64,000 bases of DNA. Source: Escherichia phage vB_EcoM-LTH01. The notes below the pieces were generated by a model. The model ran no database searches and was not told the origin of the DNA. It saw only the letters and a program-made list of their open reading frames with translations. Location of the stretch: the sequence record PP430345; one strand, given 5' to 3'. Below are positions 4,859 through 34,118 of this stretch, piece after piece. The number at the start of each line of letters is the position of its first letter. Positions within the stretch are counted from its first letter, which is position 1. The translations under genes and the position numbers were made by a program.

Positions 4859-6034
4859 ATGTCTGAAGTTAAAGTTATCAATGCTGTATACGATGCTGTT
4901 TCCGATACCACAGTAAACATTGCAGCAGGTACGATTGAACGTATCCTCATTAAACGTATTAATGAAGATGGTAGTCCACGCGTTACCACCTTTAAAGATA
5001 AGAATACAGGTCAGCAAAAAAGCATTAACAATACCCACCGCTATGCAGTTCTTCTGAAAGAAGGTGAAGACCAGGCTTGGATTTCTTTTGGTGAAGGTGA
5101 AGTTAAAAACCTGAAGTATGAGAATCAGTTCCAGATTAAAAATCCTGAAGGTGGTTACACTGATCTTAAAGAAGGTATGAAAATTCGCTTACCTGTTGTT
5201 ATCAAGACCTACACCAAACAAGATGGTAGTCAGGGTTCTTCTACGGAAGGTAAGAAAGCACGTATCAAGATTACTGACGCATCCGGTGCTCGTGAGCCTC
5301 GTCAGCAACAGCAGCAATCAAGTGGTTCCCAACAGCAGCAAAAGCCGTCTGGTGGTGCAGCTAAGAAGATTTATGGTGATATCACATCTATCGAAGGCAA
5401 TAAGGTAGTTGTTAAGCTGGAAGACGGCACAGAAGTTACTGTAAACCTCACTGATGAACAGACGGGTCAGATTACAGAAGGTGGTCGTATTGCAGGTGTT
5501 CGTTCAGATGATGGTACGGTTACAAGCTTTAAAGCTTACGGTCCAAAAGGTGCAAATACTGGAACAGGATCACGTTCAGGTAAAGGTAAAGACGATCTGC
5601 CTATTCGTTTAGGTAATGCACTGTCTATCACAGATGCGATGTTCCCGAATGAAACGATCGCAAATCAGGGTATTGTTGTAGAGCAAGTTCTTGCAGCGAT
5701 GGACTCCATTAAAGCAAAACTTCGCGAAGAGTTTAAATCTATGGATGATTATTCTTTTGGTGCTCGTTTAGGCCAGTGTGGTATTCTTTCTGCCCGTTGG
5801 GGAAGTAATAACATTGAAACGTTTATTGCTAAAACAGAAGAGAATTTCCGATTTATCTGTCAGTTGGAAGATAAGATCCGTAACGGGGCTTCAACCCCTA
5901 AGCAAGAAGAAAAGAAATCTGAGCCGGAACCGCAGTTAACTCCGTCAGCAGAAGATTCACCTACACCTGATATCGAAGGCCATGTGAATATGTCTGTAGA
6001 TGATATGGATTTTGACGACGATATTCCGTTTTGA
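4859..6034 (+). CDS. ssb: single-stranded DNA-binding protein (391 aa)
   Basis: C-terminus ..DDMDFDDDIPF is identical to the E. coli SSB acidic tip. Has a Gln/Gly/Ser-rich linker (QQQQQSSGSQQQQKPSGG), a strong SD and biased codons. Confidence 0.8.
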   Translation: MSEVKVINAVYDAVSDTTVNIAAGTIERILIKRINEDGSPRVTTFKDKNTGQQKSINNTHRYAVLLKEGEDQAWISFGEGEVKNLKYENQFQIKNPEGGYTDLKEGMKIRLPVVIKTYTKQDGSQGSSTEGKKARIKITDASGAREPRQQQQQSSGSQQQQKPSGGAAKKIYGDITSIEGNKVVVKLEDGTEVTVNLTDEQTGQITEGGRIAGVRSDDGTVTSFKAYGPKGANTGTGSRSGKGKDDLPIRLGNALSITDAMFPNETIANQGIVVEQVLAAMDSIKAKLREEFKSMDDYSFGARLGQCGILSARWGSNNIETFIAKTEENFRFICQLEDKIRNGASTPKQEEKKSEPEPQLTPSAEDSPTPDIEGHVNMSVDDMDFDDDIPF

Positions 6035-6054
6035 TCGTAAAATTTAGATAAAAA

Positions 6055-6082
6055 TAAAGGCGCTCATTTGAGCGCCTTTTCT
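6055..6082. terminator. bidirectional rho-independent terminator at the convergence point
   Basis: GGCGCTC-ATTT-GAGCGCC (7 bp) is flanked by an A-run upstream and a T-run downstream. Sits between ssb (+) and the 411-aa gene (-). Confidence 0.7.
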
Positions 6083-7318
6083 TTATGCTGGAATAACTAT
6101 ACCTTCCAAGTTAAACTTCTGAGCTATCGTATTAGAGGCCGTAAAGTCAGCAGGGTACATAGCCCCTGTGTAACCTCTCCCTGTCCAGTAAAGATTACCA
6201 TTGCCACTAACAATTACTTTAAAAGTGTCAGCCAATGAGCCAGTCATATGGAGAATGCCGCCATCATCTATAATATCTTGATGTATGCTTTCAAAAGATG
6301 TTGCGTTGGTGGTTATAGGAAGATCTCTAAATAAGGAGTATGTGTATCCACCTTGTCCACCTGTCGATTGATAAACTCCATTAACCCTGTCAGAGATGAA
6401 TACTTGCAGTGCTGCCCTAGTGCTCACACTTGCGTTTGTATAACTGATCTGGTTAGTTAGGTAAACTTCAACTCCAGCAGGAATGCTTGCCATAGGTGCT
6501 AAATTAGGACCGAGGACGTTGGTTGAGTTTATCCCTGCTCTTGCTGCCGATCCAACTGCATCCCATGACCCATCTTCCCTCTGTGCAACAATAAGTATAA
6601 TAGATTGAGCACCTGAACCGCCAGCCGTGTTAGCCACTTGACCACGAGCACATTTTGCCCTAATATATCTTACAGAAGGGTCCCCAATAGTTGTCCAAGT
6701 TGATAATATTGTTCCGGCAGAAGTACCTGCTACTTGATCTACACCATTGTCGCCTCGGTATTTTAAAGTCCCATCAACCTCGACACGAATAGCATTATAG
6801 TTTGCAAAATACAGATATTTTGTTTTTTCACCCCAAGCTATTTGGGGTCCGTCTGGAAGAAGTCTATAAACAGTGCCGTCAGGTTGGATCGCATATGATC
6901 TAGCTATTTGTATTGCGGAAGATAAGATATTTACGCCGTCAACAATGTATGCAGATTCAGGCAAGACGTTCCAACTGTTTTGGAGAGTTGTGTCAACAGC
7001 GGGGAAGATTACGGCAGAGATATATTCATAGTGGTTATTATTTTTCTTAACCCATACACCGCCGTACAGTGTACTGTCTGTGCCTGCCTCATAAACTTCT
7101 TCGACACCCGTGTTAGTGAGTGTCCATCCAGAAGTTGCATTATTTGTGGTCCCTGTTTTACCAAGCCCGTTTAAATAATTAGATCCGGTTACATACAGAT
7201 GCCCATTAGTAAGCAAAATAAAAATATTTCCTGTACTGGTGCTTACGGCATATTTGATTGTAACGCCTACAGGCAGCGGAACACCGCCGCCGAAGTTAAT
7301 AATTGGAAAAGGGATCAT
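6083..7318 (-). CDS. putative distal tail-fibre / receptor-binding protein (411 aa)
   Basis: Immediately downstream of the 1077-aa fibre gene, with an AGGAGG SD. Gly/Thr/Asn-rich with recurring 'LY.TG..Y..G.G' strands suggesting a beta-propeller-like fold (inference). Confidence 0.5.
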   Translation of the reverse strand: MIPFPIINFGGGVPLPVGVTIKYAVSTSTGNIFILLTNGHLYVTGSNYLNGLGKTGTTNNATSGWTLTNTGVEEVYEAGTDSTLYGGVWVKKNNNHYEYISAVIFPAVDTTLQNSWNVLPESAYIVDGVNILSSAIQIARSYAIQPDGTVYRLLPDGPQIAWGEKTKYLYFANYNAIRVEVDGTLKYRGDNGVDQVAGTSAGTILSTWTTIGDPSVRYIRAKCARGQVANTAGGSGAQSIILIVAQREDGSWDAVGSAARAGINSTNVLGPNLAPMASIPAGVEVYLTNQISYTNASVSTRAALQVFISDRVNGVYQSTGGQGGYTYSLFRDLPITTNATSFESIHQDIIDDGGILHMTGSLADTFKVIVSGNGNLYWTGRGYTGAMYPADFTASNTIAQKFNLEGIVIPA

Positions 7319-7330
7319 TTATCCTCCTAA

Positions 7331-7353
7331 AAAGAAAAGGCCCCGAAGGGCCT
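7331..7353 (-). terminator. rho-independent terminator (UUCG tetraloop)
   Basis: Minus strand reads AGGCCC-TTCG-GGGCCT followed by TTTTCTTTTT. Confidence 0.7.
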
Positions 7354-7356
7354 CTA

Positions 7357-10300
7357 TTAGCGACGAGTGATGAATACGTCAATCAATGGGCCTTTGCCAC
7401 GATAAACCATGTTAACTACCGATACAGTGTTTGCATCTGTGTTGATGGTTTCAGTACCGTGTACAACAAACTCCGATCCGAATGTTACCGCATGTCCACC
7501 TGTACCATCCTGTTCAAAGAAGAGGAACACTGACTCACCTTTTCCTGAACTCAACAGGCCAATCGGTGCTTTCACTTCAACATCATTTATAACGTTTACG
7601 TTATATATGCTCGTTGAGCCGTCTGGGATATAAGAAGAAGAGGTGGTGCTTACTTCTTTTGGTGTGGTGCTGAACTTGCTTGCGGAAATGGCGTTTTCAG
7701 AACTAAGGGATTGAACATTTAACGGTACAGTCGGGATATTAAACTGACCAGTTACAGTCAGGTCTGTTATGTTCGCCGTCGTTAACGTAGCTGTCGTGGT
7801 AGACAAAGATGCAGGCTCGATCGCCTTTCCAGACAAGTCGATATTGCCAGAGATGTTACCAACAACAGTCAGGTTTCCACCAACTCGAAGGTTCTTGTTG
7901 ATGTTTGCACCGGAAAGAGAAGTTATCCCGTATGTAGGTGCACCTTCATAATCTTCACCGAATGTACCAGATAATCCAGTTACCGATGTACGAGACTCAA
8001 TGGAAAGGGCACTTACTGTTCCCGTTGAGGTCATAGAAGCAACGTTAACGTCTTGAGAGCTAAGGTCAATGTTGCCAGTTACAGTTCCTGTTACGTTAAG
8101 GTCGCCCTGAATCTCACCTGGTCCACGAACTTCAAGAGCAGGATCACTAGACCCGACAGTACGAGTGATAACCGTGTTACCTGAAGTTACTTTACCAGCA
8201 CGGATATCATCGGTGATGACTTGATCAATGTTGCCTATCCCTGAAACCTCTAAGCTTCCTGCCATTACTTGTCCAGTTGAAATCAAAGAACCAACTTCAG
8301 CTTGACCTGTGGCAACAATTGCAGTAGTCTGAATCTCAACTTGAGCGGTTACGCTACGGGGAGAGATATCTTTACCGTTTATGCTTTCCGCTGTCCCTAA
8401 GGCGTTACCATTCGCGTCCAGAAGAGATCCAAATACCTGTACGTCATTGAAGCTTGCTTGACCTTGAACAGATGTGATATTACCAGCGGTGATAGTCAAA
8501 CCATCATTTAAGGTAACAGCACCTTCCAAGAGGCTAGTCTCTTCGACACGTAGCGTTTTAGTTCTCACAGACGTTGCAGACTGCACACTATTTGGAAGAA
8601 TGTCTTGACCAGTGACGTTTGCAAAGAATTGCTCACCATTGGCATTTGTCAGGTTTCCAGTTACCTGAAGATCTACCGTAGTAATCTTTTGATTGTTGGT
8701 TATGTTATTAGCAGTAACCTCGTCAAAAGTTGATCCACGAGTAACCGTCAGGGTATTAACCTGAATGTCCCGCCCAGTGAGGTCTACTTCAAAACCTGTT
8801 ACAGTTCCCGTGATTGTCAGGTTATTTACCTGAGTTTCTCCAGTGGCTGTCAGGTTTGCCGTTGTAACGCTCTCAGAAGCTTCTACAGACGTTGTTTCCA
8901 CAGAGGATGGGAGAATGTCTTGTCCGTCAACATTTCCCGTTACAGTGATTCCTGTGGTGGTTCCTGTGACTACAAGATTGTTAACCGTTGTGGTCGAAGT
9001 TGTTCCTGCGGTAATGTCGCCACTAACTGAGAGGCTCGCACCATCAATTGCAGCAGCCGTTATGTCCCCAGTATCTAAGCTTTGGATACTTAACTCACCG
9101 TCTAGAGTAATATCACCACGAACACGCATGTTGTTACCAACATCGATGTTTCCTGTGGTTGTCACCGAAGAAGGAGAGATTGCTTCACCATCAATAGAGA
9201 CTGTAACTCCCGTCAGGTTTCCAGTGATCTCAAGATCCTTGATCGTTGCCTTGTTAGTCACTGTCAGATCTTGGAATTCAACAGCAGAAGTTCCAAAGTC
9301 GATATCGGCCCTGAGTGTTCCATTAACCGTCAGGTTGTTTACCGTAACATCGCCGGAAGCAGTAGTAGGTCCAGTAATGTTTAAGCTCTCTGCCACAGTA
9401 ACAGATGTTGCACTCACATTACGAGGGGAAATGTCTTTCCCGTCAACACCGATTCCAGCACCCGTGAGAGTACCTTCGATTCTTACATTTTTCAATACTG
9501 TATTGCCAGCAACGGCAAGATCTGCACCGAGAGTTGTATTTCCCTTGACCTCCGCAGTTCTTTCAACCACAATGCTGTTAGGATTAATATCCAGACCTTC
9601 AACGTCAGCCTTCAATCCTTCAATGGTGTTCGTCACACGAAGAGTATTTATTTCCGCAATACCGTCAACGATCAGCTGTGGGCGGTCTTCTGCGTTATTG
9701 GCATTACCCTCTAAGTGAAGATAGTCACCTTGCATGAATCCATCAACATCAAGAGAATTCGTGGAAACAGAGGTATTTCCAACCTTGATCTCTCTCGCAG
9801 TTATATTATCGCTATCAACAACACCAGTGGTGACTTGGAAAGGCTTTATATTTGTTCTTTTGGTTAACCCTGCCTGGGGTGGAACGCCATTTTGTTCAAA
9901 TGCGATTTCTGCGTCTGTGCCTGTCATTCGTAATCTTTTTAAAGATAATTCGGCATCAAGAGCAGCGATCCTGTCGCCAGTGAAGATGGTTTCTCCACTT
10001 ACATAGAGATCTTTCAGACTCGCATCATCTGCAACGATAATGTTTTGGAATTCACCTTTGGACTCTTCAAGAACCTCACCACGTACTTTTTCTATTTCTC
10101 GGCTAACCCAAGCGGTGTTCGCGATAGTAAATGAGCTATCACCTTCAGCAGCAAGAGGTACAGTAGGGTTTCCACGGAAGACAGGGGAAAGGATAGGGGC
10201 GTAAGTTTCTTGAATGTTACCTTTATCGAAGAAAGGTCTGAACTTCCCGTCGTTGATCGGACTGTCTCGCATAACGACAGGGGTACTAGTAGTTGCACCT

Positions 10301-10590
10301 GGGGCATACCACCAAGTTACGTTGCCATTTACATCGGTAAAGGCATACAACTGATTGAATTCAATAACTGAACTTCCATTTCTCCACGGTAACGGTGGAG
10401 TTTTGAAATAAAAGTTATCAATTATTGCTTTACGTACACTCGGGATTAAGCTACCATCTTCTGTAACAGCTTGTTCAGTTGCTGTGCCGTTGACGATCAA
10501 ATGAAGTCTTCGAGAGTCTTCGATGATCTGATCAACAGCAAGGTCTGCTTCGGTGCTTACCAGTGCCAATATATCAGTATTAGACGACAC
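7357..10590 (-). CDS. long tail fibre / tail spike protein (1077 aa)
   Basis: GTG start. About 8 degenerate repeats of 'G(K/Q/E)(D/A)I.P.SV..T.....L.VTG' consistent with a beta-helical shaft. Located in the tail-fibre block. Confidence 0.75.
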   Translation of the reverse strand: MSSNTDILALVSTEADLAVDQIIEDSRRLHLIVNGTATEQAVTEDGSLIPSVRKAIIDNFYFKTPPLPWRNGSSVIEFNQLYAFTDVNGNVTWWYAPGATTSTPVVMRDSPINDGKFRPFFDKGNIQETYAPILSPVFRGNPTVPLAAEGDSSFTIANTAWVSREIEKVRGEVLEESKGEFQNIIVADDASLKDLYVSGETIFTGDRIAALDAELSLKRLRMTGTDAEIAFEQNGVPPQAGLTKRTNIKPFQVTTGVVDSDNITAREIKVGNTSVSTNSLDVDGFMQGDYLHLEGNANNAEDRPQLIVDGIAEINTLRVTNTIEGLKADVEGLDINPNSIVVERTAEVKGNTTLGADLAVAGNTVLKNVRIEGTLTGAGIGVDGKDISPRNVSATSVTVAESLNITGPTTASGDVTVNNLTVNGTLRADIDFGTSAVEFQDLTVTNKATIKDLEITGNLTGVTVSIDGEAISPSSVTTTGNIDVGNNMRVRGDITLDGELSIQSLDTGDITAAAIDGASLSVSGDITAGTTSTTTVNNLVVTGTTTGITVTGNVDGQDILPSSVETTSVEASESVTTANLTATGETQVNNLTITGTVTGFEVDLTGRDIQVNTLTVTRGSTFDEVTANNITNNQKITTVDLQVTGNLTNANGEQFFANVTGQDILPNSVQSATSVRTKTLRVEETSLLEGAVTLNDGLTITAGNITSVQGQASFNDVQVFGSLLDANGNALGTAESINGKDISPRSVTAQVEIQTTAIVATGQAEVGSLISTGQVMAGSLEVSGIGNIDQVITDDIRAGKVTSGNTVITRTVGSSDPALEVRGPGEIQGDLNVTGTVTGNIDLSSQDVNVASMTSTGTVSALSIESRTSVTGLSGTFGEDYEGAPTYGITSLSGANINKNLRVGGNLTVVGNISGNIDLSGKAIEPASLSTTTATLTTANITDLTVTGQFNIPTVPLNVQSLSSENAISASKFSTTPKEVSTTSSSYIPDGSTSIYNVNVINDVEVKAPIGLLSSGKGESVFLFFEQDGTGGHAVTFGSEFVVHGTETINTDANTVSVVNMVYRGKGPLIDVFITRR

Positions 10591-12227: not shown

Positions 12228-13862
12228 TTAGCCCTCCACCGTTACCCATACGCCAGACATACGCTTCTGGATTGGTTTGTAATAACCTTGGTTTAATCCA
12301 AGTCCCGCTGAAACAACACCAGTGATTACGCAACCTGCCGGAGCACGTACAGGACTGGTATAGTTGTCCCCATTCATTGTCGTTTGTTGCTCAATACCTA
12401 AACGAACATCTTCGATAGTTTGAACAACTACGGCTGGAATAACTGTAACCTGCCTTGTTGCTTGGATTCCCGTAATAGATCCACGAACAGTAATAACAGC
12501 AGTACCTGGAGCAACACCCGATACATATCCACTTTGTGTAACGACAGCAACGTTAGCATTACTGGTGGAATACACTAGCGGCTCGTTGGAGTTGGCAGGT
12601 GTTCTGTTAACAGGGATCACTTCAGAATCGTTAACTTCCACACTAGGGATGCTGCCGATACTGATCGCTGTCAATGGTGTGTATGAAACTATTTTAACCT
12701 GTGCCGATATACCTGTGGAGATAGAGGCAATGATGTTAGTTTCACCTGGTCCAGTCAATCTTACATTACCAGCGCTATCCACGGTTGCAACATTACCATT
12801 CTGAGAGGTCCAAGTAACAGGATATTGGCTCGCCAAGTTTGCAGGGAGAACTTGAGCAGATATCCCTTGGGTAAAACCTACACGATTTGTAATGCTATCT
12901 GGTGTAGTAACAAGTGCAGTTGGTGACAGACTTCCAGTACCTTGTGCCTGATCAGTCTTGATAATGTACATCACTGCGACGTTCTTAGGTCTGTTTTCCG
13001 GTGCAGTCGGAACTACACGGCTTGCATCGAATCGAACATCACCTGCTGGGTTTTTACGATCGTGGTCAGGACCCGAGTTTGAGTTATATTGCGTATAAAG
13101 CGCACCTTGTTCACGATAACCGTGATCAGTACGGATACTTTCGTAACCCATTACACCCGTAATGTTTCGAATCGCATCACCTTGAATAGAACCTAAAGCA
13201 CGACCAGAGTCAGGGTCGTAAGCTCCAGATCCGTGCGCCCATCCACGAAGGAACAATCCACGATAATCAGGGACTACGTTTCGTCCTAAAACTTGGTACA
13301 GTCGTGGGTTCTGAGATGTACTGAATACTTGCCCGTTACACTCCAAGAATCCCGCCGGAGGAACTTGACCAGCCCAAGTAAGAATTGCACCAATCGGAAC
13401 CAGACGAGGCTCAAGCTCATCAATACGTGCGTTTAATCGGGAAACTGCATTATCTAAGTCTTGAGATAAACGAGTAACACGCTGATCAACCGCAGTGATC
13501 TCACGACGAAGATCTGCAACAGTCTGCTCTACATAAGTTCTTAAAGTTGCAACAGATTGTCTTACGTTCGCAACATCTTCACGAATAACTTCCAGTTGAT
13601 TGTTTACTCGTGTTTCGAGTTCCTGAATCAGTCGCTTGTATTCTTCTTCAACCTCTGGAAACTTCTCTTCTACGATCCAATTAAGCCAAGCACCAGACTG
13701 GTGAAGAATATAGTTGAATTCTTCTGCCGCTGGTTTTTGCCCTTTGTCATAGCCCTTTGCTAAAAGGTCATCAATCGGTTTTGATTTGTTAGGTCTTCCA
13801 GTACCAGGAAGGTTAACATCTTGTGCCGCAAAGACAACAATCGGTGTTGTTGGTCTAGCCAT
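12228..13862 (-). CDS. tail fibre protein with tail-collar and Big_2 domains (544 aa)
   Basis: N-terminal coiled coil. Collar motif PIGAILTWAG..PAGFLECNGQ..PDYRGLFLRGW. Two Ig-like (Big_2-type) repeats (..VTWTSQNGNVATVDSAGNVRLTGPGETNIIAS..). Confidence 0.75.
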   Translation of the reverse strand: MARPTTPIVVFAAQDVNLPGTGRPNKSKPIDDLLAKGYDKGQKPAAEEFNYILHQSGAWLNWIVEEKFPEVEEEYKRLIQELETRVNNQLEVIREDVANVRQSVATLRTYVEQTVADLRREITAVDQRVTRLSQDLDNAVSRLNARIDELEPRLVPIGAILTWAGQVPPAGFLECNGQVFSTSQNPRLYQVLGRNVVPDYRGLFLRGWAHGSGAYDPDSGRALGSIQGDAIRNITGVMGYESIRTDHGYREQGALYTQYNSNSGPDHDRKNPAGDVRFDASRVVPTAPENRPKNVAVMYIIKTDQAQGTGSLSPTALVTTPDSITNRVGFTQGISAQVLPANLASQYPVTWTSQNGNVATVDSAGNVRLTGPGETNIIASISTGISAQVKIVSYTPLTAISIGSIPSVEVNDSEVIPVNRTPANSNEPLVYSTSNANVAVVTQSGYVSGVAPGTAVITVRGSITGIQATRQVTVIPAVVVQTIEDVRLGIEQQTTMNGDNYTSPVRAPAGCVITGVVSAGLGLNQGYYKPIQKRMSGVWVTVEG

Positions 13863-26536: not shown

Positions 26537-27061
26537 TTAGTTGACCATCCAAGGATTACGCTTTCTTACACCAGTTCTTGTACCCACAGCAGGGAAAATA
26601 CCTGGTTCCATGAATCCATTGAAGGAATCCCGATTTCTTTTAACTCTCGCAAATTCACCATTCCTTGTTCCACCGATAATGATCAAACCGAGGCCAGAAC
26701 CTACGGCGTTGTCTTTAAGGCACGGGTCAATATACTCAGGATGCTCAGTCAACCAGTCGAGAAAGTCTTGCCAGTTTCCAGAGTTAGACCCGTATTTCAC
26801 AGATATGGTTTCATCGCCAACTTTTTCGAATCGTTCACGAATTGAAGAAGCACCACTTGAAACTTCCTGAACAATAAGCCAACGTACACAATCAAGAACG
26901 GTATTGTAAAGAATGATGGAGAACTGATCCGGCCTGTTTTCTAGGTCGTAACAAATCTTCCATTTATTATAGAAAAACAGAATCATGCTGTCAGGCATTT
27001 CATCTTCAGTAAGTCCACCTAAAAAGTTACGGACAAGTTGTACTACTTCTTCATCAGTCAT
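26537..27061 (-). CDS. head-tail adaptor candidate (174 aa)
   Basis: The track start at GTG 27094 would cover the promoter. ATG 27061 follows GGAGGATAAC. Functional call is by position. Confidence 0.45.
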   Translation of the reverse strand: MTDEEVVQLVRNFLGGLTEDEMPDSMILFFYNKWKICYDLENRPDQFSIILYNTVLDCVRWLIVQEVSSGASSIRERFEKVGDETISVKYGSNSGNWQDFLDWLTEHPEYIDPCLKDNAVGSGLGLIIIGGTRNGEFARVKRNRDSFNGFMEPGIFPAVGTRTGVRKRNPWMVN

Positions 27062-27084
27062 GTTATCCTCCAGTGTATTAAAAC

Positions 27085-27093
27085 ATATTATCA
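27085..27093 (-). promoter_or_regulatory. extended -10 element TGaTAATAT (late cassette)
   Basis: Downstream of terminator 27121-27144 and 24 nt upstream of ATG 27061. Confidence 0.45.
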
Positions 27094-27120
27094 CAAAATA
27101 AAGAGAAAGTCATTTGTATA

Positions 27121-27144
27121 AAAATAAAGCCACCCGAAGGTGGC
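27121..27144 (-). terminator. rho-independent terminator (UUCG tetraloop)
   Basis: Minus strand reads GCCACC-TTCG-GGTGGC followed by TTTATTTT. Confidence 0.6.
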
Positions 27145-27153
27145 CTTATACAT

Positions 27154-28851
27154 TTAATAGACATTACCGGTTTGAATAGTTTGTGTAGCTCCGTCAAAAA
27201 TACAAATAGAATATATTGACAATCTCCCACCTGTGTCACTTGAAGAAGATTTATTCATCGTTGCTGTTATCCAAACCCTCCAACAACTTCCGTCGTTATT
27301 GTCTGTAACAACAAGGTGCATTGTATCTGGATACCCTACAGTCGCCGACGCATTTTCAACATAAGCAACAGTATTGCTCAATGTTGCATTACTTACCCTC
27401 CCTGTTTTTATTCTATTAATATCCGTGTAGTTAGCCGTCAAGTACCATCCAAAATTTATTTGTCTGGAAGAAGACGATGTTCCTGCGGAGAAACCTACCT
27501 TAACTTGACTAGCCAAACCTGCGGCGTCAATAATAAGCCTTACATTACCATTATTAGTACCGGGTAAAGGTAACCACATTTTTTTAGTCCCAGTAGGTGT
27601 ATTATAAACCCCAGCTAAGGTAGGAGTAGCAGCTGGACCTACATCTCCTTTATCCCCTTTGTCCCCTTTCTCGCCCTTAGGACCTTGAGGGCCTATCATA
27701 CCTGCCGGACCTTGTGGTCCAATAGCACCTGTCTCCCCCTGAGGGCCAGTCGGACCCCTGATACCCTGAGGGCCAGCTATGCCTTGAGTGCCTTGAGGGC
27801 CTGCTGGGCCGATATCTCCTTTATCTCCCTTAGGACCTTGCGGACCCTCTGGGCCAGTTGGTCCTGCATCACCCTTCACTCCCTGGGGACCTTGTGGACC
27901 TTGAGGACCAGTCGGACCTATATTACCTTGAGGGCCAGTTGGACCCGTTGCACCAATTGGACCTTGAGGACCTTCAGGGCCTGCTGGACCTTCAGCGCCT
28001 ATATCCCCTTTAGGTCCTTGTGGTCCCATAGGACCCTGAGGTCCTTCAGCACCTTGATCACCTTTGGGACCAACAGCGCCTGCAATCCCCTGAATACCCT
28101 GGGGACCCTGAGGGCCTGTTGGCCCTTGTTCCCCCCTTGCACCTTGATCACCTTTTGGACCCTGCGGTCCTTGTGGACCTGTTGGCCCTTGAGATCCTTC
28201 TAAGGCTAAGATAACCCAATCTTCATTTGTACCAGGTTCTGAGCCAATACTGGCAGAACTGGCAAAATACGTTGAACCATTGTAAGAAACCGAATCATTT
28301 TCAGAATAAGATTCCTCAGCGTCCCAAGTACCTTTGAAAGTCAAACCAGCAGGGCCAACCTCACCTTTTTCCCCTTTAGGGCCTGTAAGTCCGATCGGTC
28401 CTTGCGGACCTTCTGCTCCAGTCTCACCCTTAGGACCTTCAGGGCCAACAAGTCCCTGAGGACCTTGCTCACCTTTTTGTCCTTGTGGCCCTTGCGGACC
28501 CATAGGTCCTTGAGGGCCAACAATACCAGCTGCCCCCGCTATACCTGCGGGACCTTGTTCTCCTTTATCACCCTTAGGACCTGTAAGGCCACGGACACCT
28601 TCATCTCCTTTGGGACCAATAGGACCTTGCGGTCCAATATCCCCTTTTGGACCCTGAGGGCCAGCAGGTCCAACTGGACCTTGTTCTCCCTGAGGTCCGC
28701 GAGGACCAGTGTTACCAACATCACCTTGTTCTCCGACACGGGAAAACAAATCTTTAAACAAATACCTCTTTCTTGCATTAAGATCGTAAACGGCAGTCCC
28801 GAAATAAACCCCGCTGTGATCTCCCGTAATACCTTTAGCTGTAGAAGGCAT
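27154..28851 (-). CDS. collagen-like fibre protein (565 aa)
   Basis: Two long G-X-Y tracts ([23 protein letters not shown]..) are split by a CBM5/12-like motif ([37 protein letters not shown]). The non-collagen C-terminal globular domain is ~170 aa. Confidence 0.8.
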
Positions 28852-28863
28852 AGATTACTCCTA

Positions 28864-29502
28864 TTAAACAGTGCGGAAAGATTCAGGTACGGAAGGAAGT
28901 TCTTCAATATTTTTTGCAATATTCACTTCTTTAATAAAAGTCCCCATATTATTGTAACTTTCTACATAAACGGAGATTATTTCTTTGATAAGTTCGATTA
29001 CATCTAGACGAAGATGCTCGATCACTTTATTATCATAAGTTAACAGACTAAATAATTGATCGTCTTCAGCCAGTTCTGCAACAGAAAGAATGGAGTGATA
29101 AAGAGACAGTGAATTTGAATCTACAGAATAGAAACTACCATCAACCTCTACGCCGCCCATGTTTTCATTTTCGAAATTAGATTTGGCAGAGTAGATTAAT
29201 TGTTCTTTTTCACGAGTCAAGTTATCAGCTAACTCTTCCTCGGTAAAATCCCTAACGTTCCAAGTTCTGTACCAGAAACCGTCTTCTCGCAATTCTGGAA
29301 GTCCTTCCGTCACAACATCCCCTTGCGGCATCGGTACATCATAAACCGCATGATATCCAACTTCAGCCATACCGACAGCGTAAACAAAGCTACCAATAGA
29401 TACGTTAGGATATTCAGCACGGTAGTCGGCCAGGTATACCGGATAACGCATGTCAGACATGCGGATCATGGGGGTCCAGCCATAAATCTTATCGATCACC
29501 AT
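28864..29502 (-). CDS. hypothetical protein between the two collagen genes (212 aa)
   Basis: ORF track. A possible fibre chaperone by position only. Confidence 0.5.
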   Translation of the reverse strand: MVIDKIYGWTPMIRMSDMRYPVYLADYRAEYPNVSIGSFVYAVGMAEVGYHAVYDVPMPQGDVVTEGLPELREDGFWYRTWNVRDFTEEELADNLTREKEQLIYSAKSNFENENMGGVEVDGSFYSVDSNSLSLYHSILSVAELAEDDQLFSLLTYDNKVIEHLRLDVIELIKEIISVYVESYNNMGTFIKEVNIAKNIEELPSVPESFRTV

Positions 29503-29522
29503 ATTAATTCCTTTCTGAAAGA

Positions 29523-29538
29523 GGGGGCCTAAGCCCCC
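29523..29538 (-). terminator. hairpin GGGGGC-UUAG-GCCCCC after the giant collagen gene
   Basis: 6-bp GC stem with no long U-run. Confidence 0.4.
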
Positions 29539-29547
29539 ATTTAAAAA

Positions 29548-32500
29548 TTAACCTATAGTCATTGCTTGAGTACCCGTCAGGAACTCACCATCCCAGAACA
29601 AGGTCAGGATAGTGCGAGTAGCCCCGAGAGTAGGTGCTGTTCCGTTAGACCAAGCGATCTGGCTATCCCAGTTAATCTGACCACCGTTACCAGTGAATCG
29701 TAAGACTATGGTTTTAGCCCTTCCTGCTGGCAATCCGGTGATGACTAAGGATTTGTTGGTAGTCCCATCTAAAGTCCAAGCGTTACCTGTGCTTGCATCA
29801 ATTGCCCCTGTAGAAGCAACAACACGCAAATCGTACTGGTCCAGCTTAACCCATGCGCCGTTTTCACGAACATAGAACCCACCTTCCAGCGGTGCTTCCA
29901 GAACTGGAACCGTCAATGTAGACCAAGCACCATCTTTACGGACGTACTGGTTACCATCACGAGGTGCTTCCAGAACTTCTGCGGTAGGCAGTTCAGTCCA
30001 ATCACCGTCGGTACGGACATACAGCTTTCCGTCCCCTGGTGCGTCATACACGTTACCACCACCTAAGAATCCGAGCAGTGCCCAGTTCGTTGCGGAAGTT
30101 TTACGGTAATATTCCAGAGTGGAAGAGTTCAGGTACAAATCGTTAAGACGACCATCGCTAACCATCGGTGCACGAGGGAAAACAACCCACAATGTACCTT
30201 GATCACCTTTAGCACCTGTCGGACCAGAAGGGCCTTGCGGACCTTGGTTACCCGTTGGACCAACTGGTCCTACTGGACCTTGGATACGTCCTAAGTTTTC
30301 GTATGCTGCACCAGTCCAACCCCAGAAGTCACCTTGGATAAGATAACCTTGACCCAAAGTACCAGTTGAAGGTAATTCATCAGAGGTATCAAATCGACCA
30401 ATGATCTCTACACCAGGACCAATATCTCCCTGAGGACCTTGCTCACCCTGTGGGCCTTGGTCGCCTTGTGGTCCTACTTCACCACGTTCACCCTGAGGAC
30501 CTTGCTCCCCTTGTGGCCCTGTGGCTCCAGTATCACCTTTGTCACCTTTAGCGCCAGTCAATCCCTGAGGGCCCTGAGTACCCTGAGGACCTTGCTCCCC
30601 TTGTGGGCCACGGGCAACCCCAGCCTCTACAAAAGCAGTTCCGTCGAAAGCGTAACCGATCCCAGTGTCGTCTGTGACATAGAAATCACCTACAGCACCA
30701 GTTTGAGGAAGGTCTGCTTGAGATGGTACAGTTCCTTTAGGGATCAGGCCAGAGCCAACATCCCCCTTGTCGCCTTTGTCTCCTTTTGCACCAGTTTCAC
30801 CAGCAGGTCCTTGTGGTCCTTGGTCACCCGTAGAACCTTTCTCACCTTGTGGACCTTGAGGACCAACTTCTCCTTGAGGGCCGACCTCACCCTGCGGTCC
30901 GCGAACGGTTCCGGCAGAAACGAATTCCACGCCATCCCAAGCGTAACCGATCCCAGTGTCTTCAGCTACGTAGAAGTCACCTAATTCAGCAGTAGAAGGA
31001 AGTTCAGCGGAGGTTGCAACCAAACCTTTCAGCTTCAGTGCATCACCTGCGTCGCCTTTGTCTCCTTTGTCTCCTTTCTCACCAGTGTCGCCTTTGTCGC
31101 CCTTCAGACCCTGAGGTCCACGAGTAAGACCAGTCAGTACCCATGCAGTGCCATCCCAAGCATAACCATTACCTTCAGACTCTACAACGTAGAAGTCACC
31201 AGTGGTGGCATCGGCAGGAAGTGCTTCTTGAGTTGCAACAATACCACGAGCAACGATACCAATTCCAGTATCACCCTTATCACCCTTATCGCCCTTGTCA
31301 CCTTTTTCGCCAGTCTCACCCTGTGGACCAATACCACCTTGTGGACCAGTCTCACCTTGGGGGCCAGCAGGACCTTGTGCCCCTGTTGCACCCTGCGGTC
31401 CTTGTGCACCAGTCAGACCAATAGGACCTTGTGGACCTTGTGGTCCTACATCCCCTTGGGGACCTTTGATGTTACCAACGTTAGTCCACTGACCGCCAGT
31501 AAAGATATAAAGATCAGCTTCAATCAGATAAGCATCACCTTCACTAATACCAGTCTGAGGCAATTGGTCTTCGGAAGCTACTGAGCCAAGGATATTCAGA
31601 CCCGCACCAACAGGACCTTGTTCACCTTGTGGACCAGTTAATCCACGAGGGCCAGTTGCACCCACGTCACCTTTTTCACCCTTCAAGGTTGCAAGGTATT
31701 CATTAACTGAACCTTCGAAACCGTTAGCAACCGCGATAGTGTAGTTGTCGTCTCCTTTATCGCCTTTATCGCCTTTGTCCCCTTTATCGCCTTTATCACC
31801 CTTAGCACCAACTGGGCCTTGTGGGCCTTGGAAAGATCCCAAATCTTCCCAGTTACCAGTACCATCAGAAACGAAGACATTAGTTCCGATCAGGTAAGCA
31901 TCACCCGCATCAGCACCTGCTGGCAAACTTGCTTCATCGGCAACAGAACCTAAGATATTAATAGCGTTAGCATTCTTACCGTCAACACCAGGTTCACCCT
32001 GCGGTCCTTGTTCACCAACATCCCCTTTCTCACCCTTCAGCGATTCAAGAAATTCACGTTGAGAACCAACGTTACCGTTAGCCAGCCAGACCTGATAAGC
32101 AGAACGACCTTCAGGGCCAATCTGGCCTACTGGTTGCCATTTATCGGTATCTCCCGTCCAAACATACATCTTTTCTTGAATGATGTAGGCATCACCAGGT
32201 TTGTTCTCTTCTTGAGGAAGATCTTCGATACGCTGGAAAGAACCAAGGAGTTGCAGACCTATACCGTCAGCACCACGAAGGGTAGCCAACCAGTCATCGA
32301 CTGTTCCAACAAAGCCTGCGGTTTCAGCAACTTCAAATGCAGAAAGACCTTCAGGTCCAGCGAAGTTACCTACGTTTCTCCATTGTTTGATACCACCTTC
32401 AGTGATAACGGTAAAGAAACTCTGTCCGATTACGTATGTATCACCATTCGCAAGATCAACAACAGAAGGCAATTGATCTTCAGATGCCAAGGTGTCGAGG

Positions 32501-33348
32501 ATGTTGATACCAATACCAGCAGGGCCACGAGGACCTTCTACACCACGAGGGCCAGTTGCTCCAGTCAGACCGATAGGTCCAGTTGCGCCAGCAGGACCGA
32601 CTTCTCCAGTATCCCCTTTATCCCCTTTTTCACCCTGCGGGCCAACAGGTCCAGTTTCTCCGGCTGGGCCTTGTGGACCTGCTGGTCCTTGTTCACCCTG
32701 ATCGCCTTTGTCACCTTTGATGGTTTCTACAAACAGACCATCTGAACGTTGTTCCAGTTTGTTACCTGCATCTTGAGAAATGTCAGCACCAACTGGAGCC
32801 ACATACAGTGCACCTTCACGAACTTGCAAGCTGTTGTCGATAGCGGGGGAAACTTTAACTGCCAAACCATCAGGGTCTACAGACAAAGCGTTAGTTGAAG
32901 AGGTGGAAACTTTCAGGGATATACGGGAGTTTTTAGCAACCAGAGGATCTGCGGTAATTTCCAGTGCGTCACCAACAGCGGTAGTGGTAGCATGAACTGG
33001 CTCAACCAGAACACCTTCCAAACTGGCATCACCTTGAGCAGCAGCTTCTTCCGCAGTGACGTATTTTGCAACGTTCGCCTGAGAGGTAGATACTTTAGCA
33101 TCTCCAGCGGAAGCAAACAAGCCTTCCTCGTTATCAGTCTGAACCAGAGTCAGGGCGTTACCTGCACGGCGAGATAGCTTAACTTGAGCTTGCAGAGGGG
33201 AAGAGGTAGTACCATTACCAACTAACAGGGTAGATACAGTATCTTCCGTTTCAATACCGTTAAAAATAACTCCACCACCAGTGGTAGTTACGACAGGATC
33301 AGGAGCAGTAACGAATGCTTCCACGACCTTATCATTATATTCAGCCAT
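29548..33348 (-). CDS. giant collagen-like 'beads-on-a-string' fibre protein (1266 aa)
   Basis: About 10 G-X-Y tracts alternate with 8 copies of a ~48-aa globular module (..I.G.V.S...LP.....GD.Y.......Y.W.G..W...G...GPQG) and with tail-fibre repeats (SAY....G..G....(F/W)L.(S/T)LKG). C-terminus has 3 copies of 'AP.DG..YVR..G.W..L'. Confidence 0.85.
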
Positions 33349-33373
33349 TTATAAAATTCTCCTAGGGATTTAA

Positions 33374-33389
33374 GCCCCTGAACAGGGGC
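33374..33389 (-). terminator. hairpin GCCCCU-GUUC-AGGGGC upstream of the giant collagen gene
   Basis: 6-bp stem directly after the stop of 33401..33994. Confidence 0.4.
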
Positions 33390-33400
33390 ATGAGGTGAGA

Positions 33401-33994
33401 TTAAAGTGCAGCAGCTAAATCTTCAAGCATCCCATCAAAGGTTTTACCTTTGCTCAGTGAAATGCCGTATTCCACAGCGAAAGCTTCCAATGCCGCCTTA
33501 GATGCAGACTTTTTGCTGTCGTCACGCAGTTCTTCAGCCTTGGCTAAGATCTGAGATTTTTCTTCTTCAGTACGAGCAGTTAATTCTTCCTTTACTTCAA
33601 CTTCTTTAACTTCTTCAACTTTAGTGTTGACAAGTACAGACTCTTCCATTACCTTAGTTGGAGTATCAGTAACAATGGCTTCTTTGACAGCCTCAATTTT
33701 CTTAACATCCAAACGGAATTTTAAAGGATCTTTAGGCTTCTCTTTAAAGAATACTAGGAAACTTGTACCTTTTTGCACAGAAGCAAGGGTGTCGATACCG
33801 AGAGCGGTCATCTTTTCCATTTGAGTTAGAAAATCATAAAGGCCACGGGCAAGGACTAGTTTTCCGTCGTAGCTGTAAAGGAATGCACCTAAACGTGCAG
33901 AGGTGTTTACATCAAGCTTTTCTAGATATTCACCGAAGAACTTGAGCATGTGATATTCACTTTTAAAAATTTCCAAGTGAGTTTGCTTAGACAT
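33401..33994 (-). CDS. hypothetical protein (197 aa)
   Basis: ORF track. First gene after the capsid gene terminator. Glu/Lys-rich helical C-terminus. Confidence 0.55.
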   Translation of the reverse strand: MSKQTHLEIFKSEYHMLKFFGEYLEKLDVNTSARLGAFLYSYDGKLVLARGLYDFLTQMEKMTALGIDTLASVQKGTSFLVFFKEKPKDPLKFRLDVKKIEAVKEAIVTDTPTKVMEESVLVNTKVEEVKEVEVKEELTARTEEEKSQILAKAEELRDDSKKSASKAALEAFAVEYGISLSKGKTFDGMLEDLAAAL

Positions 33995-34074: not shown

Positions 34075-34100
34075 ATAAAAAAGGCCACCCGAAGGTGACC
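34075..34100 (-). terminator. rho-independent terminator after the major capsid gene (UUCG tetraloop)
   Basis: Minus strand reads GGTCACC-TTCG-GGTGGCC followed by TTTTTTATT. Confidence 0.7.
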
Positions 34101-34118
34101 TTTAATCAGTTATTAAGA

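Follow-up and report, generated by a model that had tools for sequence, protein, structure and literature searches.

The minus strand of the genome of Escherichia phage vB_EcoM-LTH01 (sequence record PP430345) carries, at positions 27154-33994 of the 64,000-nt stretch analysed here (hereafter, the window), a late operon of four open reading frames (ORFs) that appears to build two accessory collagen-like virion fibres together with the proteins helping to make them. We tentatively favour, with somewhat less than even confidence, a reading in which the two fibres have different destinations: the giant fibre of 1266 amino acids (aa) would be an accessory third tail fibre, assembled with a DUF4376-like chaperone, while the 565-aa protein would be anchored on the capsid and carry an exchangeable tip. 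The ORF list gives exactly the coordinates and sizes claimed in an earlier prediction made from the letters alone (the original prediction), and from upstream to downstream the operon consists of:

33401..33994, minus strand: 197-aa protein, a probable non-virion assembly factor specific to Vequintavirinae
29548..33348, minus strand: 1266-aa collagen-like beads-on-a-string fibre, orthologue of phiTE gp215 and W70_131
28864..29502, minus strand: 212-aa virion-associated protein, a candidate DUF4376-like fibre assembly chaperone
27154..28851, minus strand: 565-aa collagen-like protein in the variable fourth slot (Pfam Collagen, 4e-50; phrog_5073)

The window region has ~92% DNA identity to Escherichia phages A5-4, A73, W70, A7_1 and UPEC06, all of them Vequintavirinae, described as genus Septuagintavirus (PMC11370258); the window belongs to an E. 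coli myophage of Septuagintavirus type. Orthologues of the first three genes are gp214-216 in phiTE and gp069-067 in PVP-SE1. Against phiTE, BLASTP returned the 197-, 1266- and 212-aa proteins at 2e-71, 0.0 and 1e-48, with identities of 53% (gp214), 55% over 954 aa (gp215) and 40% (gp216), and the corresponding identities to the W70 homologues are 93%, 93% and 66%. A common order was observed in A5-4, UPEC06, W70, phiTE, KaOmega, CR3, SSBI34 and PVP-SE1, in which the major capsid protein (MCP) gene and a terminator are followed by a ~200-aa gene, a fibre of ~900-1270 aa, a ~215-aa gene, one or more variable genes, a second terminator and the adaptor gene, and this arrangement is kept across three Vequintavirinae genera. 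The original prediction was correct in placing the genes between the capsid and neck genes, with MCP upstream and the portal adaptor downstream, but wrong in calling them an inserted module, since the order is conserved in phiTE, KaOmega, CR3, SSBI34 and PVP-SE1. Orthology, synteny and adaptor identity assign the locus to the gp214-216-type operon of Certrevirus and Septuagintavirus; that operon is already known from published genomes, and the window holds another instance of it, conserved in the Certrevirus/Septuagintavirus/Seunavirus lineage. Gene order is the same as in phiTE gp214-gp217 and W70_132-W70_129. The phiTE fibre, however, has 7 modules, 8 collagen tracts and about 2 foldons, where the window fibre has 8, 9 and 3, and the fourth slot of phiTE is occupied by the 164-aa gp217 rather than by a 565-aa collagen protein. 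Fibre and 212-aa-type genes are also paired in jumbo phages, namely in Erwinia Agricanvirus SpecialG (gp306/gp305) and in Pseudomonas phage EL (ORF156/ORF154).

That the operon encodes fibres of the particle is supported by published virion proteomics, as three of the four proteins have homologues that occur abundantly in W70 and CB7 virions (PMC11370258, PMC7344957). Mass spectrometry (MS) of W70 virions gave 2032 spectra for the giant-fibre homologue W70_131, the highest count of all proteins, 114 for W70_130 and 728 for W70_129 (PMC11370258), and CB7_10, 11 and 12 were detected in CB7 virions (PMC7344957). The homologues of the 197-aa protein, W70_132 and CB7_9, are absent from the MS tables (PMC11370258, PMC7344957). 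The W70 spectrum counts were considered as an estimate of copy number and rejected, as the counts for sheath (311), portal (467) and tube are out of scale with the known stoichiometry of these proteins. A search of the literature for virion proteomics of the collagen gene in VR7 and JS98 was unproductive.

The giant fibre belongs to Pfam Collagen (PF01391, 1.3e-44, 150.2 bits vs. a cut-off of 27.2) and matches phrog_3904, "tail fiber protein", with 1068 bits; compared with the PDB by sequence, the full protein returned collagen matches only. In the G-X-Y triplets of both collagen proteins Pro is dominant at X, and Gln, Lys and Thr occur at Y. The giant fibre is divided as follows:

32716..33348, minus strand: N-terminal non-collagen domain, residues 1-211, the presumed virion-attachment end
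30190..32715, minus strand: shaft, residues 212-1053, with nine G-X-Y tracts, eight ~46-aa modules and three short motifs
29833..30060, minus strand: three tandem foldon-like motifs, residues 1097-1172 (Pfam Fibritin_C)
29551..29832, minus strand: C-terminal ~94-aa domain, the presumed distal or receptor-binding end

The shaft had been described as about 10 tracts alternating with 8 copies of a ~48-aa module. The eight copies were recovered, while the tracts of at least 4 triplets number nine (23, 7, 9, 9, 23, 9, 17, 22 and 10 triplets, 129 in total) and the module measures ~46 aa. The collagen alone would extend for ~111 nm at 0.286 nm per residue. Modules M1-M8 (window 30271-32508) share 22-61% pairwise protein identity and the consensus L.ILG.VA....LP.T...GD.YVI........WDG..W...G, and the shaft also holds three short motifs of the form SAY..A.NGF.GS..E.L..LKG. 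Searched with a profile at E <= 1e-3, the module turned up in 5,252 representative proteins, some of which hold as many as 15 copies; the profile retrieved no relative from the PDB, and Pfam gave no match to the module at E <= 0.01. Beyond the shaft, the three "knob repeats" AP.DG..YVR..G.W..L of the original prediction do exist at residues 1097-1172, and are better described as foldon trimerisation motifs: Fibritin_C matches three stretches (1.9e-12, 47.6 bits vs. a cut-off of 21), and a 16-residue foldon stretch closely resembles the T4 foldon EAPRDGQAYVRKDGEW. The foldon and a long trimeric fibre are what the protein would have in common with T4 fibritin (wac). Here, however, the shaft is built of collagen and beta-rich modules instead of segmented alpha-helical coiled coil, three tandem foldons are followed by a 94-aa domain instead of one foldon closing the chain, no sequence similarity to fibritin was found beyond the foldon, its N-terminal domain included, and only positions 53-92 of the Fibritin_C model match. 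Fibritin moreover forms neck whiskers, and no neck density was reported in phiTE.

The two ends of the giant fibre differ in their phylogenetic range. Its start, MA(E/D)Y.DKVV, is conserved only within Vequintavirinae, and residues 1-211 gave a sub-threshold Pfam match to Av_adeno_fibre (E 0.012), a hint of an adenovirus-fibre-like shaft, as well as a single weak match in the PDB, the baseplate tail fibre of phage 7-7-1 (9rkv_M, E 0.0035). No significant similarity was seen when this domain was compared with the N-terminal ends of LTF, STF and the 411-aa protein of the window. At the other end, the motif DRYDL...WSNG...LTG is kept in phiTE, PVP-SE1, SpecialG gp306 and EL ORF156, and phrog_19200 matches residues 973-1264. 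Conservation of the final ~210 aa reaches as far as the jumbo phages, whereas the N-terminus and, with it, the 197-aa gene are confined to Vequintavirinae, a distribution consistent with an attachment end specific to the lineage and a distal end held in common. Taken as a whole, the protein would trimerise through its three foldons and collagen tracts into a thin, jointed fibre some 150 nm long or longer, with rigid triple-helix rods between small globular modules. The N-terminal domain would attach the protein to the particle, most probably at the baseplate periphery as the unmodelled "third fibre" of phiTE, and the C-terminal domain would be the distal, host-binding end.

The architecture of the fibre is constant within the genus, apart from A5-4, whose giant fibre is one triplet shorter, while numbers of modules and tracts elsewhere are 7/8 in Certreviruses, 6/7 in PVP-SE1 and 9/9 in SpecialG. 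The repeats had been predicted to be prone to recombination, and this receives weak support: the architecture is constant within the genus and differs by one module between genera. Three copies at 30601-31257, reported as near-identical, in fact share 48-61% protein identity, and in DNA the best pairwise value is 70% over 161 nt. Among exact direct repeats in the operon the longest measures 27 nt, as compared to 12-16 nt in control regions, and at this length the DNA can be regarded as only mildly recombinogenic. Its two copies (30490-30516 and 30580-30606) lie 90 nt apart and in frame within collagen tract 8, where they constitute a plausible site for the gain or loss of 30 residues.

The 212-aa protein, encoded next to the giant fibre, is a candidate DUF4376-type fibre assembly chaperone on the grounds of its predicted structure. 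Its AlphaFold2 (AF2) model is confident (predicted local distance difference test, pLDDT, 92), and Foldseek against a viral structure library retrieved DUF4376 and "phage tail assembly chaperone" models at E-values of 1e-5 to 1e-3, with a TM-score of 0.90 to a DUF4376 protein of phage Noxifer. Since no Pfam match to DUF4376 was obtained at the sequence level, even at a lenient threshold, we call the protein chaperone-like and not a member of the family. The fold is similar to that of DUF4376 chaperones such as the fibre chaperone of cyanophage Pam3 (PDB 7ypx); in the present case the gene directly follows the fibre gene, and its product remains in the virion, where the putative chaperone would stay with its fibre. 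The gene is also a sharp two-part mosaic with a junction near 29215. Residues 1 to ~95 are 97-100% identical to those of W70, A5-4 and UPEC06, residues ~96-212 only 25-50%, and a metagenomic relative, P0002, has the reverse identity pattern, which places a recombination breakpoint inside the long helix of the chaperone-like protein.

The 197-aa protein matches phrog_3259 (9e-49) and PVP-SE1 gp069 (1.7e-17), has no Pfam domain at a lenient threshold, and no counterpart of it was found in the jumbo-phage cassettes. It is probably an assembly factor that is left out of the virion. Its C-terminal 45 aa (33401-33535) match phrog_1051, "minor head protein inhibitor of protease" (T4 Inh-like, E 1.7e-5), a match which may reflect merely a charged helix. 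A PDB sequence search with the 197- and 212-aa proteins gave no informative match.

The 565-aa protein is likewise a member of PF01391 (167.9 bits vs. a cut-off of 27.2) and contains 107 triplets, corresponding to ~92 nm of collagen. Behind a 39-aa N-terminus come two collagen tracts of 44 and 63 triplets, separated by a ~47-aa insert, and a ~158-aa all-beta domain closes the chain; the parts discussed below are:

28735..28851, minus strand: N-terminal anchor, residues 1-39, with profile homology to the phiTE gp217 group
28198..28338, minus strand: CBM5/12-like insert, residues 172-218, between the two collagen tracts
27157..27630, minus strand: C-terminal ~158-aa all-beta domain of the CR3 gp011 / IME08 gp169 type

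The N-terminus provides the putative link of this protein to the capsid. Direct BLASTP against phiTE gp217 gave no similarity, and the PHROG scan of the 44-aa N-terminus no match; the link came from profile-profile comparison of the N-termini alone, in which hhalign aligned the first ~34-35 aa of the 565-aa family with the N-termini of gp217, CR3 gp010, KaOmega gp10, SSBI34_518 and PVP-SE1 gp066 at 94.5% probability and a score of 34.1, as compared to 8.0 ± 2.1 (maximum 19.8) for 200 column shuffles and 10.2 for a reversed control. The 565-aa family thus has its putative anchor in common with gp217, the type putatively assigned to the "Pagoda" at the hexamer centres, a relationship that is new, found in this analysis by comparison of sequence profiles. 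At least one anchor-bearing protein was present in every Vequintavirinae genome examined; KaOmega gp10 and CR3 gp010 combine the anchor with a short collagen tract of 8-10 triplets, and PVP-SE1 gp066 matches "head fiber protein" PHROGs. In view of the anchor shared with gp217, the second fibre would be held by this ~35-aa segment, probably at the capsid hexamer centres. Members of the 565-aa family also occur in T4-like phages, where in VR7, IME08 and Kosakonia phage 305 their genes adjoin hoc-like genes, after duplicated gp24 vertex genes:

VR7 (locus L012), 4989-6272: 565-family gene
Kosakonia phage 305 (locus L013), 4986-6395: 565-family gene
IME08 (locus L009), 6054-7462: 565-family gene

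The anchor of the IME08 protein is encoded apart from it, in a small ORF upstream, an arrangement suggestive of either a frameshift or a wrong annotation.

Between the two collagen tracts, the resemblance to a CBM5/12 sugar-binding motif noted in the original prediction was indeed seen (PF02839, E 3.7e-4, model positions 1-22 of 44), but at 20.9 bits it stays below the Pfam threshold of 26.2; the match was obtained in three of five family members (E <= 0.01), and the aromatic signature residues are invariant in all five. The predicted C-terminal globular domain also exists, measuring ~158 rather than ~170 aa. It is 40-44% identical to the homologues of CR3, PBES02, POP15 and IME08, and its type changes among close relatives: the window has the CR3 gp011 type, unlike W70, A5-4 and UPEC06, which carry others, and the whole protein is ~50% identical to W70_129 with a different C-terminal domain. 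Word-indexed homologue searches with this domain returned only 1 and 6 fragments, and owing to this scarcity the AF2 model of residues 405-565, built on an alignment of 7 sequences only, is poor (pLDDT 54.7, all-beta, 8 strands) and the fold search uninformative, with nothing below E = 1 in Foldseek against the PDB. By sequence, the 565-aa protein found only collagen matches in the PDB, and the NCBIfam search yielded only collagen adhesin models, far below their cut-offs.

Two kinds of known protein resemble it in architecture. SPP1 gp12 is collagen-like, is encoded beside the capsid gene and is proposed to form a trimeric spike at quasi-six-fold positions (PMC7602432). KaOmega gp10 and CR3 gp010 are of similar size and recall its architecture; the 565-aa protein differs in its 107 triplets, CBM-like insert and 158-aa distal domain. 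The likeness is one of architecture, and capsid binding by the 565-aa protein is putative. BclA/C1q, streptococcal Scl and Legionella Lcl have, as here, a Pro-rich, bacterial-type G-X-Y stalk and a globular C-terminal domain. The BclA/C1q likeness had been proposed in the original prediction, and in the PDB and NCBIfam its matches come via the collagen part; in contrast to these collagens, the window proteins have no signal peptide or LPXTG context and are virion proteins.

The operon is bracketed by two terminators:

34080..34103, minus strand: intrinsic terminator 3' of the major capsid gene (10-bp stem with 5 GC pairs, TTCG loop, T-run), the upstream boundary of the operon
27124..27149, minus strand: intrinsic terminator 3' of the 565-aa gene (11-bp stem, TTCG loop, T-run), the downstream boundary of the operon

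The first of them had been predicted and was borne out at 34103-34080 on the minus strand, and an annotated terminator lies at the equivalent place in phiTE. The two are near-identical, with the common stem-loop GG(T/C)CACCTTCGGGTGGCC, a TTCG loop and then a T-run. Upstream of the operon the gene encodes the MCP (Pfam Phage_cap_E, 7.7e-38); downstream, 26537-27094 encodes a homologue of the phiTE portal adaptor (PDB 9cc7_D, 2.4e-63), followed by Neck1-type, head-completion and tail-terminator genes. The adaptor ORF of 185 aa has a GTG start, and its alignment with the phiTE adaptor begins only at residue 12; the real start of the gene is probably the ATG at codon 12 (MTDEEVV...). On the plus strand of 27300-33200 many long antisense ORFs lie over the collagen genes (e.g., 28402-29007 and 32008-32745) and are taken to be mechanical by-products of the periodicity of G-X-Y codons, and the GC content is 0.52 at 30001-32000 vs. 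~0.42 elsewhere.

Where the fibres sit can be approached through the relatives of the window phage. Cryo-electron microscopy (cryo-EM) of phiTE described the connector, without collar or whiskers, as made of portal, adaptor, head-completion and terminator proteins, and the capsid as made of MCP, trimeric DEC and the hexamer-centre "Pagoda" density, putatively assigned to gp217; a third, unmodelled fibre candidate, "previously annotated in the genome", was placed in the baseplate network (PMC11972413). The phiTE RefSeq record has exactly three tail fibres (215, 236 and 241), two of which were modelled, and from this we infer that the third is gp215. The N-terminal domain of the giant fibre showed no significant similarity to homologues of the modelled phiTE baseplate fibres LTF gp241 and STF gp236, and in the window LTF and STF are encoded elsewhere, at 7357-10590 (PDB 9cuy_g) and 12228-13862 (PDB 9cuy_c). 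Transmission electron microscopy (TEM) of W70 and CB7 revealed a bundle of thin, flexible tail fibres. Beside the LTF gene, 6083-7318 encodes a 411-aa protein, homologous to W70_106 and phiTE gp242 and virion-associated in W70, for which no PDB relative was found; it is a second candidate for the unassigned phiTE density.

Several points weigh against the combination of a third tail fibre and a capsid-anchored fibre. The locations of both proteins are inferred. By its authors' own words, the identification of gp217 with the Pagoda rests only on MS abundance (PMC11972413). That of the third fibre with gp215 derives from annotation, and the 411-aa gp242 homologue is also an unmodelled virion protein. 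The position of the operon directly after the capsid gene favours head association for all of it, and the W70 spectrum counts, which do not track copy number, cannot settle stoichiometry. Moreover, the T4-like carriers of the anchor have a different capsid protein and Hoc already at their hexamer centres, so that the anchor may be a trimerisation cap rather than a capsid-binding element.

The same position, between MCP and adaptor genes and with its own terminators, suits an alternative that we consider unlikely, namely that both collagen proteins are head or neck appendages, the giant fibre emerging from the vertices or neck and the 565-aa protein from the hexamers, to capture flagella or the cell surface. 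Two relatives in the fourth slot have ties to the capsid, gp217 being the putative Pagoda and PVP-SE1 gp066 having its "head fiber protein" PHROGs; no N-terminal anchor common to the giant fibre and the baseplate LTF or STF was found, and the giant-fibre homologue tops the W70 spectrum counts. Certreviruses are flagellotropic (PMC7344957, PMC11972413), and the flagellotropic phage 7-7-1 uses capsid fibres. First flagellar contact is made through these capsid fibres in 7-7-1 and through a head filament in phiCbK, both of them long, flexible and proteinaceous, a parallel to which the flagellotropism of the relatives phiTE and CR3 adds; the only sequence link to 7-7-1, however, is the weak match of the giant-fibre N-terminus to a baseplate fibre. 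That match, to the sole PDB relative of the N-terminal domain, points to the baseplate instead, where the phiTE authors put their third fibre, and both the 3.6 Å icosahedral capsid map and the connector maps of phiTE were described without vertex or neck fibres. In phage EL, furthermore, the homologous fibre shares an N-terminal segment with the adjacent ORF157. Segments of this kind, shared by adjacent proteins, occur in tail fibres and spikes that use one adaptor. As to the head or neck location of the original prediction, a capsid position of the 565-aa protein is thus circumstantially supported by the gp217 anchor and the hoc neighbours, but positive evidence was lacking for the 1266-aa protein and neck whiskers were unsupported; the main text of the phi92 structure paper contains nothing on collars, whiskers or head fibres.

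It is only a little less doubtful, and still improbable in our judgement, that both proteins are ordinary baseplate side tail fibres whose position among head genes is a historical accident. Their best PHROG matches are tail-fibre families and GenBank and RefSeq name the homologues tail fibres ("tail fiber protein", "side tail fiber protein Stf"), but collagen repeats dominate these matches and the names were assigned automatically. The bundle of thin flexible tail fibres in TEM of W70 and CB7, and the chaperone-like gene downstream of the fibre gene, as in tail-fibre loci, would agree with it as well. Against it stand the N-terminal homology of the 565-aa family to gp217, the putative capsid protein, the location of the family in three T4-like genera, which is the hoc region and not the tail-fibre cluster, and the phiTE baseplate maps, in which no fibres other than LTF, STF and a single further one were resolved. 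Very unlikely, by our estimate, is a main function other than adsorption, be it particle dispersal, attachment to mucus or biofilm matrix, or capsid stabilisation, as for Hoc or SPP1 gp12. Precedents are the collagen-like trimer of SPP1 gp12, whose binding to hexamer centres is reversible, and two dispensable adhesins, Hoc and the head fibre of phi29 (PMC7602432). Glycan binding is suggested by the CBM5/12-like insert, yet no known stabilising decoration protein comes near these fibres in length, and among close relatives the 565-aa protein has had its C-terminal domain swapped. Swapping of C-terminal domains is typical of receptor-binding tips under host-range selection.

Returning to the favoured assignment of one fibre to the tail and the other to the capsid, both would widen the capture radius of the particle for a reversible first contact with the cell surface or flagellum, and the 197-aa assembly factor would not be packaged. 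A bolder view, to which we give about the same modest credence as to an all-tail placement, is that the ~35-aa anchor defines a modular family of capsid-mounted collagen fibres in Vequintavirinae and several T4-like genera, the giant fibre perhaps being head-borne too, and that this head-first capture apparatus was missed by the averaging of cryo-EM. If true, the anchor family would span from ~100-aa stubs (CR3 gp010, KaOmega gp10) to ~100-nm fibres with swappable tips, and would provide long-range, head-first capture of flagella or surface glycans.

The two collagen proteins are among the most abundant virion components by MS in Septuagintavirus and Certrevirus, and cryo-EM has left them unplaced. 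The ~46-aa module of the giant fibre extends to thousands of uncharacterised proteins with neither a curated family nor a solved structure. Should one or both of the fibres reside on the capsid, host recognition in these phages would begin at the head rather than at the tail. The phage group includes candidates for therapy and for plant biocontrol, and the swappable tip of the 565-aa protein, if capsid-borne, would be a host-range determinant overlooked by tail-fibre engineering.

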